10,542 nucleotides of DNA from the UHGV virus genome UHGV-0077157; one strand, 5' to 3'. Numbering within the stretch: position 1 is the first letter of the stretch; each line of letters opens with the position of its first letter. This DNA comes from a virus. Of the stretch, positions 1-7,342 are shown in pieces. Made by a program: the position numbers and the translations under genes. The notes beneath the pieces were generated by a model. It was not told the origin of the DNA. It did not search any database and saw only the letters and a program-made list of their open reading frames with translations.

Positions 1-88
1 ATTATGAGTCGCTCGCTCTCACCACTGAGCTAAAGGGCCGGGAGCAGAATAATAATGGTGCGTAATTAATTCTGCAATCTCATCCGTT

Positions 89-1138
89 TCAAACGATTAA
101 ATCCTGAACTTCCCTGACTGTCTGTTCAAAACGTCCTGTCTCCAGCTCAACACCAATCGCACAACGCCCCAGTGCCATCGCCGCTTTTACCGTTGAACCT
201 GAACCCATAAAAAAATCTGCAACCAGGTCTCCCGGACGACTGCTCGCGTTGATTATCTGCTGCAGCATTTCTGCCGGTTTTTCGCACGGATGTTTCCCTG
301 GATAGTACTGCACCGGTTTATGCGTCCAGACATCGGTGTACGGAACCTGCGCCGTCACACCGAAATACCGCCGCAAATTTTTATATTCACTCAGCAGTTC
401 CGTATACTGCCGGTTCAGCTCACTGTATGTGCTGACCAGCTGGTGGTGTGGCTTTTCCAGTTCCCCGCGCTGATGTTTTTCTGCCGCAACACGCGCAAAC
501 AACGCCTGCAATTTATTGTAATCACCCTCGTTCGGTAACTGCCACTGACTGGCACCAAACCAGTGCGAAGCCATGTTTTTCTTTCCGGTGGCTTCCGCTA
601 TCTGTTTTGACGTTATTCCCAGTGATTTACGCGCATCACGAAAGTAAGAAATCAGCGGGGCCATGACGTGCTGTTTTAGCTCGCGCCCCTGCTCCACATA
701 GCCATCATCTTTCGGGCGATACGGTCCCTGATAATGTTCTGCAAACAGAATGCGCTCTGTTGCCGGAAAATACGCCCGCAGACTTTCCTTATTGCACCCG
801 TTCCAGCGTCCGGACGGCTTCGCCCAGATAATGTGGTTCAGCACATTAAAGCGCTCACGCATCATGATTTCGGTGTCAGATGCCAGGCGATGACCACAGA
901 ACAGGTAAAGACTTCCGGCAGGCTTCAGTACCCGCCAGAACTGCGCCAGACACTGGTCCAGCCATTTCAGGTAATCATCGTCGCCCTCCCACTGGTTATC
1001 CCAGCCCTCGGGCTTCACTTTAAAGTATGGCGGGTCTGTGACTATCAGATCGACAGAATTTTCCGGTAAGGTCTGGATAAATTCCAGGCAATCAGCGTTG
1101 ATTAACTCACAACTGGATATTTTTACAGTATTGGCCAT
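89..1138 (-). CDS. DNA methyltransferase, beta-class (N6-adenine or N4-cytosine), phage-type orphan MTase
   Basis: 349-aa ORF. Catalytic DPPY motif near the N-terminus (LIVTDPPY) and AdoMet-binding FxGxG-like motif near the C-terminus (DFFMGSGST), i.e. motif IV before motif I as in beta-class amino-MTases. No restriction endonuclease partner visible in the window; only 88 bp remain downstream. Confidence 0.85.
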   Translation of the reverse strand: MANTVKISSCELINADCLEFIQTLPENSVDLIVTDPPYFKVKPEGWDNQWEGDDDYLKWLDQCLAQFWRVLKPAGSLYLFCGHRLASDTEIMMRERFNVLNHIIWAKPSGRWNGCNKESLRAYFPATERILFAEHYQGPYRPKDDGYVEQGRELKQHVMAPLISYFRDARKSLGITSKQIAEATGKKNMASHWFGASQWQLPNEGDYNKLQALFARVAAEKHQRGELEKPHHQLVSTYSELNRQYTELLSEYKNLRRYFGVTAQVPYTDVWTHKPVQYYPGKHPCEKPAEMLQQIINASSRPGDLVADFFMGSGSTVKAAMALGRCAIGVELETGRFEQTVREVQDLIV

Positions 1139-1277
1139 AGATCAATAAGCACTTCTCTGATAGGCTCATACCGCTTTTGCGCAAAGCAGATGGGCCTGAG
1201 GTTTGCTTGTGACCCCAACGCATGAGCAGATGGCTGGCAGGTGCCGCTAACACCCACCAGCCGCCCATTACCACAAA

Positions 1278-1304
1278 TTAAAAAGCCTTCACTGCGGAAG
1301 GCGT
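1278..1304 (-). terminator. Putative intrinsic terminator after the small winged-helix gene
   Basis: Minus-strand RNA forms GCCTTC-CGCAGT-GAAGGC hairpin (plus 1285..1302) followed by TTTTTAATTT. The TGA stop of the upstream ORF lies inside the hairpin. Confidence 0.4.
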
Positions 1305-1486
1305 CTGTAACAACCGAACTGATAATCTGCCAGACCCGCCATAACAAGCTGGGTCAGGATTAACTGGCAGCGTTCGCGTGAAAGGTAAGTATTCTGCGCA
1401 ATTTCCCCGACGGTCGCCGGTTCGGTGACGCTTAATTCATTAAACACCACTCTGGCGGTTTCGGTCATATCCAGCTGTTTTAGCAT
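1289..1486 (-). CDS. Small (65 aa) putative winged-helix DNA-binding protein, function unknown
   Basis: The 106-aa ORF is trimmed to the internal ATG at 1486, which has an AAGGG Shine-Dalgarno about 8 nt upstream; the ATG at 1609 directly abuts the terminator U-tract and has no RBS. Sequence MLKQLDMTETARVVFNELSVTEPATVGEIAQNTYLSRERCQLILTQLVMAGLADY resembles small wHTH regulators (FaeA/PapI-like or MarR-like pattern). Bracketed by terminators on both sides. Confidence 0.45.
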   Translation of the reverse strand: MLKQLDMTETARVVFNELSVTEPATVGEIAQNTYLSRERCQLILTQLVMAGLADYQFGCYRRLPQ

Positions 1487-1607
1487 GCCTTTTTCCCTTT
1501 TCCGGTTAACGTGACATACCAATACCTCTTGTCGAAAAAGCCAGCAAGCTGAAAGACCAGTATTCACAACAACCAGCGCGTTTAATGTTCTGTGCCGTTT
1601 TTCAGGC

Positions 1608-1636
1608 ATAAAAAAACCCGCATAAAGCGGGTTCTT
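1608..1636 (-). terminator. Strong rho-independent terminator downstream of the Q-like gene (tR'-like)
   Basis: Minus-strand RNA: ACCCGC-UUUAU-GCGGGU hairpin followed by a 7-U tract (reverse complement of plus 1610..1633). Lies about 165-190 nt downstream of the Q-like stop codon, matching the PR'-tR' spacing of the lambda late leader. Confidence 0.6.
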
Positions 1637-1798
1637 TCAGGTGTCCATGTCTGCTATTCGCCTCGCGGTACAGCTTTGCGAAGCGTAGCTGGATTGAAAC
1701 AGTTTATGGCTAAAAATACAAGCTTTTTTTCTAAAACTGCACAAACCTTACTACCAGCCAAAAATCCTCTTCGTGCAACAACAAACGCCCTCCAGATT
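1637..1798 (-). promoter_or_regulatory. Inferred late promoter / Q-utilisation (PR'/qut-like) region and short late leader
   Basis: Non-coding 160-bp interval between the Q-like stop and the terminator, assigned by synteny with lambda Q-PR'-tR'. No near-consensus -35/-10 pair could be placed with confidence. Confidence 0.3.
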
Positions 1799-2353
1799 CT
1801 AAGCGTCAGTAAAAGAAAATGCATCTCGCATCAGTGGATACAGAATAAACTCAGCTATTCTCAGCCACATATCTATACGATTGCGGCATGTTGCATAGCA
1901 CCACTCAGGGTGAACCTCATTCAACAATTCAGCCATTTTGCGTTTACTCATCCCCCGCCCTTCGTACCTTTGCCGCAGGATATCAATCAATCCAGGATAA
2001 CGTGCAAGCGCTTTACTTATCACCCCATCAATGCGTAACGCCTCTGCATCAGTACAGTGAGACAACCAGCTCTTCTGTCTGCCAGCGATCATCTCTCGCA
2101 AGAATGCTTCCAGCTCTGGTTTATCAATCCCTGACTCCCTGATTCTACGCAGGGCTTCATTGACCGCGGTTTTTGTCAGTTTTTTGGATGCCAGCAACTG
2201 ATTGAACATATTTCCTGGTTTGCCACCACCTATATACGACCAACGCCCCCACATCCGTAATTTCCCCTGGATCCAGACGGCTTCCAGCGTTTTTAGACGT
2301 AAATGCTCGCCGCTTTTGCCTGTAATTTCCGGGTATATCATATTTACGATCAC
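1799..2353 (-). CDS. Putative late-gene antiterminator (Q-like), assigned mainly by position
   Basis: 184-aa ORF immediately after rusA and immediately before a promoter-proximal terminator, the canonical Q position. GTG start at 2353 overlaps the rusA stop (GTGA); alternative ATG at 2341. No recognisable motif beyond synteny. Confidence 0.5.
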   Translation of the reverse strand: MIVNMIYPEITGKSGEHLRLKTLEAVWIQGKLRMWGRWSYIGGGKPGNMFNQLLASKKLTKTAVNEALRRIRESGIDKPELEAFLREMIAGRQKSWLSHCTDAEALRIDGVISKALARYPGLIDILRQRYEGRGMSKRKMAELLNEVHPEWCYATCRNRIDMWLRIAEFILYPLMRDAFSFTDA

Positions 2354-2709
2354 TCACTCTCAATTTTGTAAATCTTCACGCCCAGCCGCCCCCCAGGAAC
2401 GAGCTGACCGCGCACAATATTAATTTCATCAAACTGCTCGTCGTCTATGAGAAGTCCGGCATGCGTCAGCGCATCCAGTGGTGCTTTCAGGATATTGTCC
2501 AGGTCACGACGACGCTTATCCGGTGGCTCTGCAATAATCTTTATCGCCAGCCGTCCGGACAGGTTTAATTTCAGCCGCTGCTCGCGAACAATTAGCGCCA
2601 CATCCCGGCGATAACGCTCACCGGCTTTTGATACAAAATATGTGTTGTCACGACGTCGCCAGTAGGTGTTCACCGTTGGCGGGTAAGGCAAAACAAACTC
2701 TATACGCAT
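2350..2709 (-). CDS. rusA: Crossover junction endodeoxyribonuclease RusA (Holliday junction resolvase)
   Basis: 119 aa, N-terminus MRIEFVLPYPPTVNTYWRRR and acidic catalytic region PDKRRRDLDNILKAPLDALTHAGLLIDDEQ align with the RusA pattern (LPWPPS.N.YY ... PDRRRRDLDNL.KA.FDALT). AAGAGGT RBS 5 nt before the ATG. Confidence 0.9.
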   Translation of the reverse strand: MRIEFVLPYPPTVNTYWRRRDNTYFVSKAGERYRRDVALIVREQRLKLNLSGRLAIKIIAEPPDKRRRDLDNILKAPLDALTHAGLLIDDEQFDEINIVRGQLVPGGRLGVKIYKIESE

Positions 2710-2721
2710 CAGTAACCTCTT

Positions 2722-3717
2722 TTACCCAAGCACGCCGGTTGCAAAGGCGTGATCAAGAAAATGAAAAATTAAATCAACCTGGGAACCATGCTTTTCTTCG
2801 AATGCCAGCGGATCCGCATGAAGCTCGTTGTGATGCTCCCGACACAGCGGTAGTGTGAAAATATCGTGGGATTTTGTTCCCATTCCACCCTGACCGTGGC
2901 CTATCAGGTGGTGGGCATCATCAGCAGGCTTTCCGCAACATGCGCACGGCTGCGTCTTAACCCAGCGCGTGTACTTTTCATTAACCCAGCGGCGACGTTT
3001 TGGGCGTAACATAAAAGACTCCGGCGACTCCGGATCCACTTTCAGCGCCAGCACCTTTTTCGCCTTATCCTGGATGATGCTGGTGGCAGTAACCGAAGGC
3101 ACAAGGTCACTTTCCCGGGTAACAGACGGCACAACAGGCTTCGGTAATCTCAGTGCCTTACGGGCTGCACTTTCCGATAAGGCATCCGCCAGATCATTAC
3201 GAATCAGCCACCAGCACAGTTCAGGCATTGTCACAACGTGACTGTCGTCAAAACCGAGCTCCCGACGCACAACAGACAACACCCAGCGGGCACAGTTATC
3301 CGTTGCCATTGATTCCAGCCGTTCCGTGAACTGATCACGCAGCTGGTTATCGCAGTGCCAGCACAGACGGATTGCGCCCGGAGCGTGTCGCATTGTGGTC
3401 ATGTTCTCGCTGTGCCAGTTGGAATGAGGCCACTGACAGCCCTTTTCACGAAGTAACCAGCTTTCAAGACATTCCACGCCACCAGCACGACGGATCACTG
3501 CCTCATTGCGGAACACGGCCCGAACGGCAGGATCATCCGCCAGCGGTTGTGATGCCGCCGGAACGGCACCACTGGCGAAAGATGAATAACGTTCCGGCTC
3601 AGGCTCCAGCAGGACACGCCCCTGCATAAACAGGGGCATCAGCTCTGAACCAGGCCTGAACAATACGATCCCCATACGCGGGGCAATTTCAGGGGTCAGT
3701 AGTGCTCTCACGGTCAC
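2722..3717 (-). CDS. Nin-region protein with C-terminal HNH/zinc-finger-like motif (DUF968/YdfU-like, putative nuclease)
   Basis: 331-aa ORF with C-terminal Cys/His cluster CACCGKPADDAHHLIGHGQGGMGTKSHDIFTLPLCREHHNELH (CxxC...HH...C..HH..H). Position between replication genes and rusA matches lambdoid nin-region DUF968 proteins. Start codon uncertain (GTG at 3717). Confidence 0.6.
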   Translation of the reverse strand: MTVRALLTPEIAPRMGIVLFRPGSELMPLFMQGRVLLEPEPERYSSFASGAVPAASQPLADDPAVRAVFRNEAVIRRAGGVECLESWLLREKGCQWPHSNWHSENMTTMRHAPGAIRLCWHCDNQLRDQFTERLESMATDNCARWVLSVVRRELGFDDSHVVTMPELCWWLIRNDLADALSESAARKALRLPKPVVPSVTRESDLVPSVTATSIIQDKAKKVLALKVDPESPESFMLRPKRRRWVNEKYTRWVKTQPCACCGKPADDAHHLIGHGQGGMGTKSHDIFTLPLCREHHNELHADPLAFEEKHGSQVDLIFHFLDHAFATGVLG

Positions 3718-3762
3718 CTCAGCGAACGGTATTGCATGAACGCAGAAGAAAAAATTCAGCCA

Positions 3763-4020
3763 TCACGCAGTAAACTCCTTCACCAGTATTTCAAACTGGC
3801 TTACCTGGCCTTCCAGTTCCGCCACGCAATCCACCAGCTCATCCACCGCCTTTTGTGTGCGGTGTTTTGCCAGCAGCAGATCACGCAGCGCCGGAGTAAG
3901 CTGCTTGCGGAGCGTATCCTTTGCCACGCTCGTTTTTTCCATCTGTTCAGCACAACGAAGCATCTCCTGCGCCTGCCGACGAAGTTGTTCCGGTGAAACA
4001 GTGGTTGTTCTGTTATTCAA
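3763..4020 (-). CDS. Hypothetical small coiled-coil protein (85 aa)
   Basis: ORF with TTG start overlapping the helicase stop (TTGA) and a GGAG 8 nt upstream. Charged, helix-prone sequence (QLRRQAQEMLRCAEQMEKT...ELVDCVAELEGQVSQFEILVKEF). No homolog recognised. Confidence 0.45.
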   Translation of the reverse strand: MNNRTTTVSPEQLRRQAQEMLRCAEQMEKTSVAKDTLRKQLTPALRDLLLAKHRTQKAVDELVDCVAELEGQVSQFEILVKEFTA

Positions 4021-5408
4021 AATAAACGCTCCGTTTTACTGCCCGACATGCGGTTATTGCTGTATCTGCGCGGATTGCCCGGCGTCATGGGTGTGGAAAG
4101 AACCCGGGCACTCTCCTGGTCCACTGGCAGAAAATGTCCGTTATGAAAACGCCGGTAAATGGTCCCGAGCGTGCCATTACGCTGTTTCGTGATGTTGATT
4201 TCTGCTATGCCTCCGGCCTGCGTTTCCGGGTTGTATACCTCATCCCTGTAAAGCATCAGAATGATGTCGGCATCCGCCTCGATTTCCCCGGAGTTTTTCA
4301 GGTCCGAGTTCATGGGGCGTTTATTGGGTCTGGATTCCACGCCGCGGGAGAGCTGGCTCAGAGCAATCAGCGGAAAACCGCCGGATTTTGCCAGGCTTTT
4401 AAGTCCCTTTGAGATTTCCCCCACCGCAAGGTCGTGACGCCCCGTGCTGCGGGTTTTAATCAGGCCGAGGTAATCGACCACCACCAGCGCCGTTTCCGGG
4501 TGTTTGATCCGGTGGTGCTTCGTGGTTGCACATATCTCATCAATGGTCAGGTTTGCCTGGTCCACCATCCAGATATTACGCCCCGTCATTCGTCCCACAC
4601 CCTGTGAGAAGCGTGCCCAGTCTTCGTCTTCAAAACGGGCAACAGACTTAAGACGGGATACCGGCATTCCACCGGCAGCAGACACCATACGTTCACCAAT
4701 CTGGATGTTCGCCATCTCCATGGTGAACAGAAGCACGCCATGCCCCTGCTCAGTCACCTTGTCGATGATGTCCAGCGCCAGTTCGGTTTTCCCCATCGAA
4801 GGACGGGCAGCAATGAATACCAGGTCGCCAGGCTCCATCCCCCCTGTTTTTGCGTCCAGTTCATCAATACCGGTCATCAGCGTTCTGGATTTCTCCAGTC
4901 CCTGATTCCGGCATTCAACACGGTCGACCACTTCCGGAAGTACATCATCAATGTGAACAGGCTGAATGACGCCCTTTTCCATCGACAATGAGGCCATCAT
5001 GTTTTGAGCATCCTTCAGAGCATCTTCAGCTGCTTCACAGGTATGCGCATCACGTAATTTCTGCAGCGCCTCATTCAGTGTTTTTTCTGCATCACGCAAT
5101 GCGGCATTGCGCCGCAGCGCTGCAACATAGTGCTCCAGTGACGACTTCACCCAGGTTTTGCGCCCGGTATCAGTAATCACCGGGGCAAGTTCCGGCATCT
5201 CATTGCACAGCAGCACAGGATCAATCGCACCTGAAACACGGGCCTGTCTGCAGATGCCTGTGTAGATATCCCGATACGCTCGTACAGAAAAAACGTCCGC
5301 CGGTAGTGTGGCCAGAATATCCATCACTTCATGATCTGCCCCTCGCAGAAAAAACGCGCCAATGACAGCGCCTTCCAGGTCATCGTTACGCCAGACAGGA
5401 GAAGTCAT
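4017..5408 (-). CDS. Replicative DNA helicase, DnaB family
   Basis: 463 aa. Walker A ARPSMGKTELALD, Walker B VVVDYLGLI, and DnaB signature stretches ALSQLSRGVESRPNKRP and DLKNSGEIEADADIILMLYRDEVY. AGAGGTG RBS; ATG overlaps the upstream stop (ATGA). Confidence 0.9.
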   Translation of the reverse strand: MTSPVWRNDDLEGAVIGAFFLRGADHEVMDILATLPADVFSVRAYRDIYTGICRQARVSGAIDPVLLCNEMPELAPVITDTGRKTWVKSSLEHYVAALRRNAALRDAEKTLNEALQKLRDAHTCEAAEDALKDAQNMMASLSMEKGVIQPVHIDDVLPEVVDRVECRNQGLEKSRTLMTGIDELDAKTGGMEPGDLVFIAARPSMGKTELALDIIDKVTEQGHGVLLFTMEMANIQIGERMVSAAGGMPVSRLKSVARFEDEDWARFSQGVGRMTGRNIWMVDQANLTIDEICATTKHHRIKHPETALVVVDYLGLIKTRSTGRHDLAVGEISKGLKSLAKSGGFPLIALSQLSRGVESRPNKRPMNSDLKNSGEIEADADIILMLYRDEVYNPETQAGGIAEINITKQRNGTLGTIYRRFHNGHFLPVDQESARVLSTPMTPGNPRRYSNNRMSGSKTERLF

Positions 5409-6283
5409 GCAGCCACACCTCTGATACGAGAACGATAGCTGGGCCAGTTAAACGACAACCAGTTGCGTCCCCCGTCTGTGATCCTGTCGGCAATGCGGGG
5501 GCTGATGAATGCCCACAACTCTTCCGGTGAAAGGTTGCTGATCAGGATGGTGGGCAGGATGCTTTCGTACCGGGCATTGATAATTTCCTGCAAAATAGCC
5601 ATTTCAGCCGCGCTGCCAAACTGAACGCCGACTTCGTCGATGATCAGCAAATCCATTGACGCATAATGCTCAATAACTTCATCCGCTGTTTTTTCGCTGT
5701 CATTTCGCCAGCAGTTTTTCACAGCACGGGTAAGGCGCATCACATCAGTAATCTCCACACTAGCCAGATGGTTACGGATGATGTGTTTTGCCATAGCCAC
5801 AGCCAGATGATTTTTTCCAGTACCACAACTGCCTGTCAGAACAAGACTGGTACCGTTAGCCAGAACATCCTCCCAGCTCTCCGCATAGCGGCGGCAGGCA
5901 GCAAGATTTCTGGCTGCATCAGAGTTAATCTCCTGATAGTTTTCAAACTCACAGTCGCGAAACCTACAGGCAACACCAGCATTCTCAATCAGCACATCAG
6001 CTTTCATTGCAACCAGAGTCCGATGTGTCACATCCATTTCATCCACCAGACACTCCGGACAGCGGGAAATTTTTGAGGCAGCGCCCCCCTGCCGATCATC
6101 CCACACCAGTATATGCGTACGATATTTACCGTGTTTTTCGCAGCATCCAACTCCTTCAGATTCCCGACAGGCACGGTAAGGCCATGGCTTTTCGCCATTC
6201 TGAGCAAATGCAATCTCTGCCCGTAACTCATCCATTCGCGCCTGTAGTCTTGTTTGTTTCTCACGTTGGTCAATCGTCATCAT
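5405..6283 (-). CDS. DnaC/IstB-like AAA+ helicase loader with N-terminal Cys-rich (zinc-ribbon-like) region
   Basis: Walker A LTGSCGTGKNHLAVAMA, Walker B DLLIIDEVG. N-terminal CCEKHGKYRTH...CPEC cysteine cluster. Start placed at ATG 6283 (GAGGTG 6 nt upstream); the ORF track extends to GTG 6292. Confidence 0.85.
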   Translation of the reverse strand: MMTIDQREKQTRLQARMDELRAEIAFAQNGEKPWPYRACRESEGVGCCEKHGKYRTHILVWDDRQGGAASKISRCPECLVDEMDVTHRTLVAMKADVLIENAGVACRFRDCEFENYQEINSDAARNLAACRRYAESWEDVLANGTSLVLTGSCGTGKNHLAVAMAKHIIRNHLASVEITDVMRLTRAVKNCWRNDSEKTADEVIEHYASMDLLIIDEVGVQFGSAAEMAILQEIINARYESILPTILISNLSPEELWAFISPRIADRITDGGRNWLSFNWPSYRSRIRGVAA

Positions 6284-6293
6284 CGCTGTCACC

Positions 6294-7118
6294 TCAGAAT
6301 GTCAATTTGTTACTGGATTTACCGTATTTGTCAGACATGGCTCCCAGGCCAGCCAGGACATCGACCTGTCGCTGTCGCCCACCTCCGTGAGCGGCTGGCT
6401 GTTGCCAGTAATCTTCGAAGTGACGATCGGGTCCAAAGAACGTCGCAGCCTGCTTCACGAACTGTGTGCCGGTATTTCCTGTAGCGCGTACCCAGGCGGC
6501 ATACCGCTTCACGCCATCAAGCATGGTCTCCGGTTTTATTCCCTCCCTGATACGGGCTTTCCAGGCTTTGAAGGCTGCTGACTTGGAATTGCCACCAGCA
6601 CGTTTGGGATATTCCTGCCAGGCCTGTTCAAATTCCGGTGAATATTCCTGTCGGGCGGAACGCGCTGGTGCAGACGCGTCAGCGGATGCGCCAATAGTTG
6701 ATTCATTGACTGGTTCTTTGACTGGTTCAAAAGAGTGACTGGTTCTGGGTGAATCTCCTGCACCACCCCCTGGTGCAACTCCTGCACCACCTGGTGAATT
6801 TGCTGCACTAGGTAGTGAATTATTTGCACTACCACCTGGTGAATCTTTTGCACCATCAAGACGAAGAAGATAAATATTGCTCGAGTTCCCTTTTTCACCT
6901 TTCCGGGAAACTTTTTTTACCAGTCCGGATTCACAAAGAGCCGTAATATGATTCATCACAGAACGTTTGCTAATCTCGCACTGATCAGCAATATGCTGAT
7001 AGCTGGGCCAGCACTCGCCCTGATCGCTGGCATTATCAGCCAGCTTAATCAGAACCAGTTTTCGCAACGGATTTCCTACGCGAATTTTCATCGCTTTCAC
7101 CATCAGCTCCATGCTCAT
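6294..7118 (-). CDS. Replication initiation protein (lambda O-like / YdaU-like) with N-terminal wHTH and a repeat-encoded linker
   Basis: 274 aa. N-terminal winged-helix segment typical of phage initiators (LRKLVLIKLADNASDQGECWPSYQHIADQCEISKRSVMNHITALCESGLVKK). Central low-complexity linker (SPGGSANNSLPSAANSPGGAGVAPGGGAGDSP) encoded by the iteron repeats. Sits directly upstream of the loader and helicase. Confidence 0.75.
   Translation of the reverse strand: MSMELMVKAMKIRVGNPLRKLVLIKLADNASDQGECWPSYQHIADQCEISKRSVMNHITALCESGLVKKVSRKGEKGNSSNIYLLRLDGAKDSPGGSANNSLPSAANSPGGAGVAPGGGAGDSPRTSHSFEPVKEPVNESTIGASADASAPARSARQEYSPEFEQAWQEYPKRAGGNSKSAAFKAWKARIREGIKPETMLDGVKRYAAWVRATGNTGTQFVKQAATFFGPDRHFEDYWQQPAAHGGGRQRQVDVLAGLGAMSDKYGKSSNKLTF
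6745..6858. repeat. Five tandem ~22-23 bp direct repeats (iteron-like; candidate phage replication origin) inside the initiator gene
   Basis: Plus-strand copies at 6745-6767, 6768-6790, 6791-6812, 6813-6836, 6837-6858 with core CTGGTGAAT-n-CTGCACCAC. Preceded by three GACTGGTTC 9-mers (6708-6716, 6720-6728, 6737-6745) and followed by a moderately AT-rich stretch (6859-6885). Analogous to ori-lambda iterons inside the O gene. Confidence 0.5.
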
Positions 7119-7342
7119 AGAACACCTCCCTGGCGTTTAAACATTTTTCCGGACTGAAACGCCACCAGCGGGTAACTCAGGGTATAAGTACGCCCCTGCA
7201 CCTGGCAGACAACCTTCTGACTTTCTGCATTGACCAGACAAACCCGCAGAACGTGACCGTTGCTGGTGGCAAACCACTGCCCCACGCGGGGGGGGCAACA
7301 GTTGTATCGGTGATACAGGGAATTAACGACGCGGCGAATCAT
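7115..7342 (-). CDS. Hypothetical small Cys-containing protein (75 aa)
   Basis: Start at ATG 7342 with GGAGGTG RBS; ATGA overlap with the upstream gene and ATGA overlap with the initiator start, so embedded in the coupled operon. No homolog recognised. Confidence 0.5.
   Translation of the reverse strand: MIRRVVNSLYHRYNCCPPRVGQWFATSNGHVLRVCLVNAESQKVVCQVQGRTYTLSYPLVAFQSGKMFKRQGGVL

Follow-up and report, generated by a model that had tools for sequence, protein, structure and literature searches.

The gene at positions 2722 to 3711 on the minus strand of the window (the whole 10,542-nucleotide stretch of UHGV virus genome UHGV-0077157 analysed here) codes for a member of the DUF968/YdfU family. 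Its C-terminal domain is apparently an intact zinc-stabilised His-Me (HNH) nuclease with predicted activity. We consider it fairly probable that the protein is an HNH nuclease that depends on a metal ion, probably nicks DNA, and works during lytic development on intermediates of recombination or replication. The gene is an unremarkable one of lambdoid prophages that has been catalogued before, and the finding itself is already known because the exact protein is present in RefSeq and a nuclease prediction for the family has been published. Specifically, Jablonska et al. (2017) placed DUF968 together with DUF1364/YbcO in group 7 of the His-Me finger proteins, named YdfU, listed RusA and Q as DUF968 neighbors, and proposed a role in recombination (PMC5714182). 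The original prediction stated that the function of the family was not established, and our literature search likewise found no experiments on the DUF968/YdfU family. The additions made here are the definition of an N-terminal zinc module, the exclusion of an Orf-like N-terminal domain, the mapping of residues onto the 2026 mutagenesis of Gp16, and a synteny census.

The reading frame is real, although its start differs from the one originally given. The list of open reading frames counts 331 amino acids from the first GTG (positions 2722..3717, minus strand), whereas the RefSeq CDS on a 100% identical sequence from E. coli ATCC 43886 (WP_001436039.1, "DUF968 domain-containing protein") starts at the second GTG, giving 2722..3711 and 329 amino acids. 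We prefer the RefSeq start because a GAGG Shine-Dalgarno sequence precedes it and because the first residue aligned to the full-length PHROG profile is residue 3 of the 331-residue frame. All residue numbers refer to the 329-residue protein, and the features discussed are collected in the table. Family membership is clear: the protein matches phrog_96 over its full length (E=6.9e-173) and Pfam PF06147 (DUF968) at E=1.5e-77, with 259.9 bits against a gathering threshold of 27.8 and model positions 2-171 of 171 aligned to residues 160-326. The same model is matched by all 25 aligned homologues, and E. coli YdfU is 53% identical over 329/349 residues (E 4e-137).

Table. Features of the DUF968 gene, its protein and its neighbors (window coordinates)
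Feature	Coordinates	Strand	Remarks
106-aa ORF	1289-1609	-	Between the Q-like gene and a DNA methyltransferase gene; weak TrmB-type HTH match, E 1.8e-3
DUF1133/Q-like antiterminator gene	1799..2353	-	Pfam DUF1133 E=1.8e-101; Phage_antitermQ 27.8 bits against a cut-off of 26
RusA Holliday-junction resolvase gene	2350..2709	-	12 nt downstream of the DUF968 stop; Pfam RusA E=5.4e-15
Complete CDS, YdfU/DUF968 family	2722..3711	-	329 aa plus stop at 2722-2724; the second GTG is the start
C-terminal helices, residues 301-329	2725..2811	-	Pack on the HNH core; AF2 helices 301-308 and 311-324, pLDDT about 90
His-Me/HNH finger core, residues 256-300	2812..2946	-	Predicted zinc ligands C256, C259, C290, H293; predicted catalytic/metal residues H268, H294, H298
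Basic segment PKRRRWVNEKYTRWVKTQP, residues 237-255	2947..3003	-	7 K/R, 1 acidic; directly before the HNH core
Middle region, residues 159-236	3004..3237	-	Two helices, low-confidence linker, conserved DPExPxSFM motif; matches the first half of the PF06147 model
N-terminal module, residues 1-158	3238..3711	-	Helical domain specific to the family, enclosing a zinc β-hairpin-helix; unmatched in Pfam
Putative structural zinc site and ββα core, residues 92-124	3340..3438	-	C92, H100, C117, C120; β104-109, β112-117, α118-124
Shine-Dalgarno GAGG	3717..3720	-	5-nt spacing to the GTG at 3711; read from the sequence
85-aa ORF	3763-4020	-	Overlaps the dnaB stop by 4 nt; directly upstream of the DUF968 gene

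The Cys/His motif that drew attention to the C-terminus is present as C256xxC259...H267H268...C290xxH293H294...H298, and no position of this cluster is kept in fewer than 23 of the 25 homologues, which extend to 30% identity. C256 is found in all 25, C259 and C290 in 24 each, and H268, H294 and H298 in 23 each. Position 293 is Cys in 13 and His in 11, an exchange that fits a zinc ligand. Together with the DUF968 match and a dN/dS of 0.04, this conservation indicates that the cluster did not arise by chance. Structure prediction, proposed at the outset as a check, and profile comparison point to Ref and Gp16 as the nearest matches, and the core has the β-hairpin followed by an α-helix that is typical of His-Me finger (HNH, ββα-Me) proteins. 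H268 lies where the catalytic His is expected at the end of β1, H294 and H298 correspond to the metal residues of the helix, and a structural zinc site of the CxxC...CxxH/C type is present. D283 is invariant within the core, and E305 and G309 are conserved in the helices that follow. Thus fold and motifs place the protein, in silico, in the His-Me finger superfamily, with a predicted nuclease activity. The conserved HNH zinc and catalytic residues and the homology to nuclease cores support the earlier suggestion that a nuclease or DNA-processing role is plausible.

The region before this core is less confidently modeled, with pLDDT falling to 55-76 between residues 190 and 240. W168, D226 and P230 are conserved in the middle region, where dN/dS is 0.093, and P237 and K238 are nearly invariant or invariant. 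The basic segment that these last two residues open is a candidate DNA-binding arm. This assignment is made by analogy with P1 Ref, whose N-terminal segment is basic (PMC4330346).

The N-terminal region, roughly 160 residues without a Pfam match, is as uncharacterised as was first described. No Pfam family matches residues 1-158 of the protein itself, and a scan of ten divergent homologues at E values up to 10 gave none for this region either. An exhaustive HMMER search with residues 1-160 against 1.84 billion representative proteins returned 179 matches at E≤1e-3. All intact matches share the same N-middle-C architecture, and the shorter ones look like fragments. One apparent relative, P0182 (E 2.4e-20), is spurious: this 2,334-residue protein consists of about 21 identical repeats of approximately 90 residues and lacks the CWHC motif, so that its score is the sum of weak repeat matches. 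It illustrates the risk of false positives with repeat-rich targets.

Within the module, four positions suggest a structural zinc site. Position 92 is Cys in 45 of 47 homologues, position 100 is His in 37 and Cys in 6, position 117 is Cys in 45 of 47, and position 120 is Cys in 28 and His in 17. All four remain at least 91% Cys/His among divergent homologues, and two of them exchange His for Cys, as structural zinc sites typically do. The arrangement CQWPH...RH...LCWHCDN in close relatives is suggestive of a second HNH domain, but the divergent homologues modify this reading: they keep the zinc positions and not the catalytic His, since the equivalent position 109 is Tyr in 17, His in 15 and otherwise mixed. 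The module appears to be a strongly conserved, putative zinc-binding domain that is unlike any characterised domain.

Among characterised proteins, the nearest relative by sequence profile is Gp16 of Staphylococcus phage ΦNM1 (Pfam HNHc_6), a RecA-dependent nickase (NAR 2026, PMC12817073), and the nearest by structure is P1 Ref (PDB 3PLW; Pfam RecA_dep_nuc). The HNH cores of Gp16 and the DUF968 protein align with an hhalign probability of 92.5% and 36% identity over 67 columns. Every residue mutated in the Gp16 study (PMC12817073) is matched by the same amino acid here: C148, C181 and H184, the zinc ligands, correspond to C259, C290 and H293, and H157, H185 and H189 of the nuclease centre correspond to H268, H294 and H298. 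Likewise, H134 of Ref, part of a nuclease-dead variant (PMC4713147), corresponds to H294. These counterparts, combined with the conservation described above, are the basis on which the domain appears to be intact. Gp16 also resembles the DUF968 gene in being an early phage gene in a replication/recombination neighborhood with RusA nearby, whereas Ref is a P1 gene under the C1 repressor rather than a nin-region gene.

The NinB/Orf-like N-terminal domain that is a trait of HNHc_6 proteins such as Gp16 was not found in the DUF968 protein, whose N module is different, and Ref has only a disordered and basic N-terminus with no folded module. Moreover, the protein reaches 24.7 bits against the threshold of 26.6 for PF16784 (HNHc_6), over model positions 123-174 only, which is the HNH part, and 12.3 bits for PF16786 (RecA_dep_nuc), far below the cut-off of 26.9. 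Its core is homologous to those of HNHc_6 and RecA_dep_nuc, and by these tests the protein belongs to neither family.

A closer comparison is with YdfU of the E. coli K-12 Qin prophage, a full-length homologue in the same Pfam family (PF06147) with the same N-middle-C architecture, whose gene is also located directly upstream of a Q-type antiterminator, ydfT. YdfU differs by a 20-residue insertion in the linker, and Qin carries no rusA beside ydfU. In contrast, YbcO of the DLP12 prophage (PDB 3G27; Pfam PF07102) is a stand-alone 96-residue domain encoded with a separate Orf-like gene, ybcN, in the order ybcN (orf), ninE, ybcO, rusA, quuD. Neither λ Orf (1PC6) nor YbcN showed any resemblance to the protein in sequence or fold. 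Comparison with λ Rap gave a BLASTP E value of 1.6 and an hhalign probability of 3.8% or less, and NinG/Rap (PF05766) was not matched in Pfam. By these tests the protein belongs to neither the Orf/NinB nor the NinG family.

The gene order of the window is O-like, DnaC-like, DnaB, 85-aa ORF, DUF968, RusA, and DUF1133/Q-like, which confirms the predicted location between the replication genes and RusA. Over positions 1-6698 the window matches the ATCC 43886 prophage at 99.5% identity; it diverges over 6699-7336 and is 96.6% identical from 7337. The divergent segment lies in the O-like replication-initiator gene and is a mosaic junction. The 85-aa ORF has no Pfam family and only a weak PADLOC match (PDC-M40C, E 1.3e-3), and it is the upstream neighbor in 5 of 80 related loci. 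In the stretch of a related prophage that matches the 106-aa ORF, RefSeq annotates a 65-aa hypothetical protein.

A synteny census covered 4 kb on either side of the DUF968 gene in these 80 related IMG/VR loci (L007-L086), which are 92-97% identical. A Q antiterminator lies directly downstream in 78 of them, and its types are unrelated: 39 are QuuD-like, 37 YdfT-like, and 2 DUF1133. The DUF1133 protein thus appears to be a third Q-type antiterminator that follows YdfU-type genes, and a less common one. RusA lies within 4 kb in 74 of the 80 loci, usually 0.8-1 kb upstream with a protein of about 270 residues between (of a kind annotated as KilA-domain). Genes for NinG/Rap, NinB/Orf, YbcN and YbcO were found in none of the 80 loci within the same distance. 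It seems that YdfU-type genes and the Orf/YbcO set do not occur together in one nin region.

Three divergent contexts, with homologues of 35-43% identity, extend this picture, and two of the three include RusA. The P0171 locus reads cI, Cro, O-like, Dam, RusA, ANT, DUF968, antitermQ, and then lysis genes; P0263 has RusA, ANT, and DUF968; and P0227 has a λ-P-like gene, Rha/ANT, DUF968, and then lysis genes. In a divergent YdfU-type prophage (L091, 6668-8199), two paired genes, one for a Ser/Thr protein kinase and one for a PP2C phosphatase, are located between Q and the lysis cassette. The census and the divergent loci together indicate a conserved trait, in which the gene is the last of the nin/early-right operon before Q and is linked to RusA, in regions without separate Orf and YbcO genes.

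Our preferred model is that the gene would be expressed from the early-right (nin) operon and that the C-terminal 90 residues would form a catalytically competent zinc-stabilised His-Me nuclease. By analogy with its nearest characterised relatives, this enzyme would probably nick DNA at recombination or replication intermediates in lytic growth, in the functional neighborhood of RusA, with the N-terminal zinc module and the basic arm supplying recognition of a substrate or partner. We infer the activity, the substrate and the nicking from the relatives, beyond the fold, residues, selection and synteny documented for the protein itself. RecA might stimulate the nuclease, and this is a reasonable sub-hypothesis because Ref and Gp16 are both RecA-dependent nucleases. 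However, it is weakened because the N module is unlike that of Gp16, because both termini of Gp16 are needed for RecA binding, and because neither Pfam threshold for the RecA-dependent families is reached. We therefore regard stimulation by or dependence on RecA as tentative, and lean against it.

We also considered four other functions. Overexpression of Gp16 causes growth arrest and nucleoid condensation in S. aureus (PMC12817073), and Ref increases degradation of the host genome in SOS (PMC4713147), so the protein might mainly damage or condense the host chromosome or cut competing incoming DNA to the benefit of the phage; effects on superinfection were suggested in the original prediction. 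We find this improbable: no PADLOC defence family is matched, and the gene has a constant place beside RusA and the replication genes, as the last of the nin operon, rather than at a moron or defence-island site. Mechanistically this proposal overlaps with a nuclease of recombination intermediates, and the target alone differs. A non-catalytic zinc-finger protein that uses the HNH fold for binding only, for example to modulate the early-to-late switch near Q, seems slightly more improbable still. The adjacent Q gene in 78 of 80 loci, the putative zinc site without a catalytic His in the N module, and the label "phage transcriptional regulator" given to one homologue in a literature listing are in its favor. 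In addition, two divergent members (P0200 and P0214) retain the N module and the architecture and have lost the HH motif and the equivalents of H294 and H298, which hints that a non-catalytic role is enough in some lineages. Nonetheless, binding alone would not need H268, H294 and H298, which are kept under strong purifying selection in nearly all of the diverse homologues, and the closest relatives by structure and sequence are all active nucleases.

Phage HNH genes are often mobile, which is a general reason for caution (PMC12315714), and this region is mosaic, with three Q types downstream and variable genes upstream. Even so, there is little chance that this is a selfish homing endonuclease that persists by cutting alleles without the gene. 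Its position and the synteny with RusA, ANT and Q persist in homologues from 93% to about 40% identity, the N-middle-C architecture does not change, dN/dS is very low along the whole length of the gene, and none of the nearest relatives (Ref, Gp16 and YbcO) is a homing enzyme. The HNH protein gp74 of phage HK97 assists terminase at cos. HNH proteins often serve as cofactors of terminase (cited in PMC12817073), but we consider a similar packaging function here to be extremely unlikely, given that the gene is in an early operon far from terminase. Furthermore, a separate small HNH gene is located beside the terminase small subunit gene both in the ATCC 43886 prophage (L001 1069-1422, P27-type) and in the divergent L090 (9455-9814), and so another gene already occupies the packaging role. 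The two HNH genes of these phages are unrelated and presumably have different roles.

The predicted nuclease is, as first claimed, widespread. Of 5,426 complete E. coli genomes, 3,322 (~61%) carry related DNA, with a median of 2 and up to 10 copies per positive genome. Many Stx-converting, Shigella and Salmonella phages carry it too, under the label "ydfU", "hypothetical protein" or "HNH endonuclease". The link to the Gp16 nickase and P1 Ref yields a concrete hypothesis with named residues (H268, H294 and H298; C259, C290 and H293), and the N-terminal zinc module stands out as a defined domain under strong constraint, without a characterised relative. A more speculative and rather unlikely extension is that YdfU-type proteins are the lambdoid counterparts of Ref and Gp16, nickases directed to RecA filaments or D-loops in which a catalytically dead zinc ββα "pseudo-HNH" N module replaces the NinB-like targeting or partner-binding domain. 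One polypeptide, with RusA, would then substitute for Orf and YbcO (or Orf and Rap). If so, RecA-dependent HNH nicking would be a general strategy of temperate phages that is present in most E. coli genomes. Should the link to RecA be true, it could bear on prophage induction, on the replication of Stx phages, and on phage-antibiotic synergy, which has been shown for Ref.
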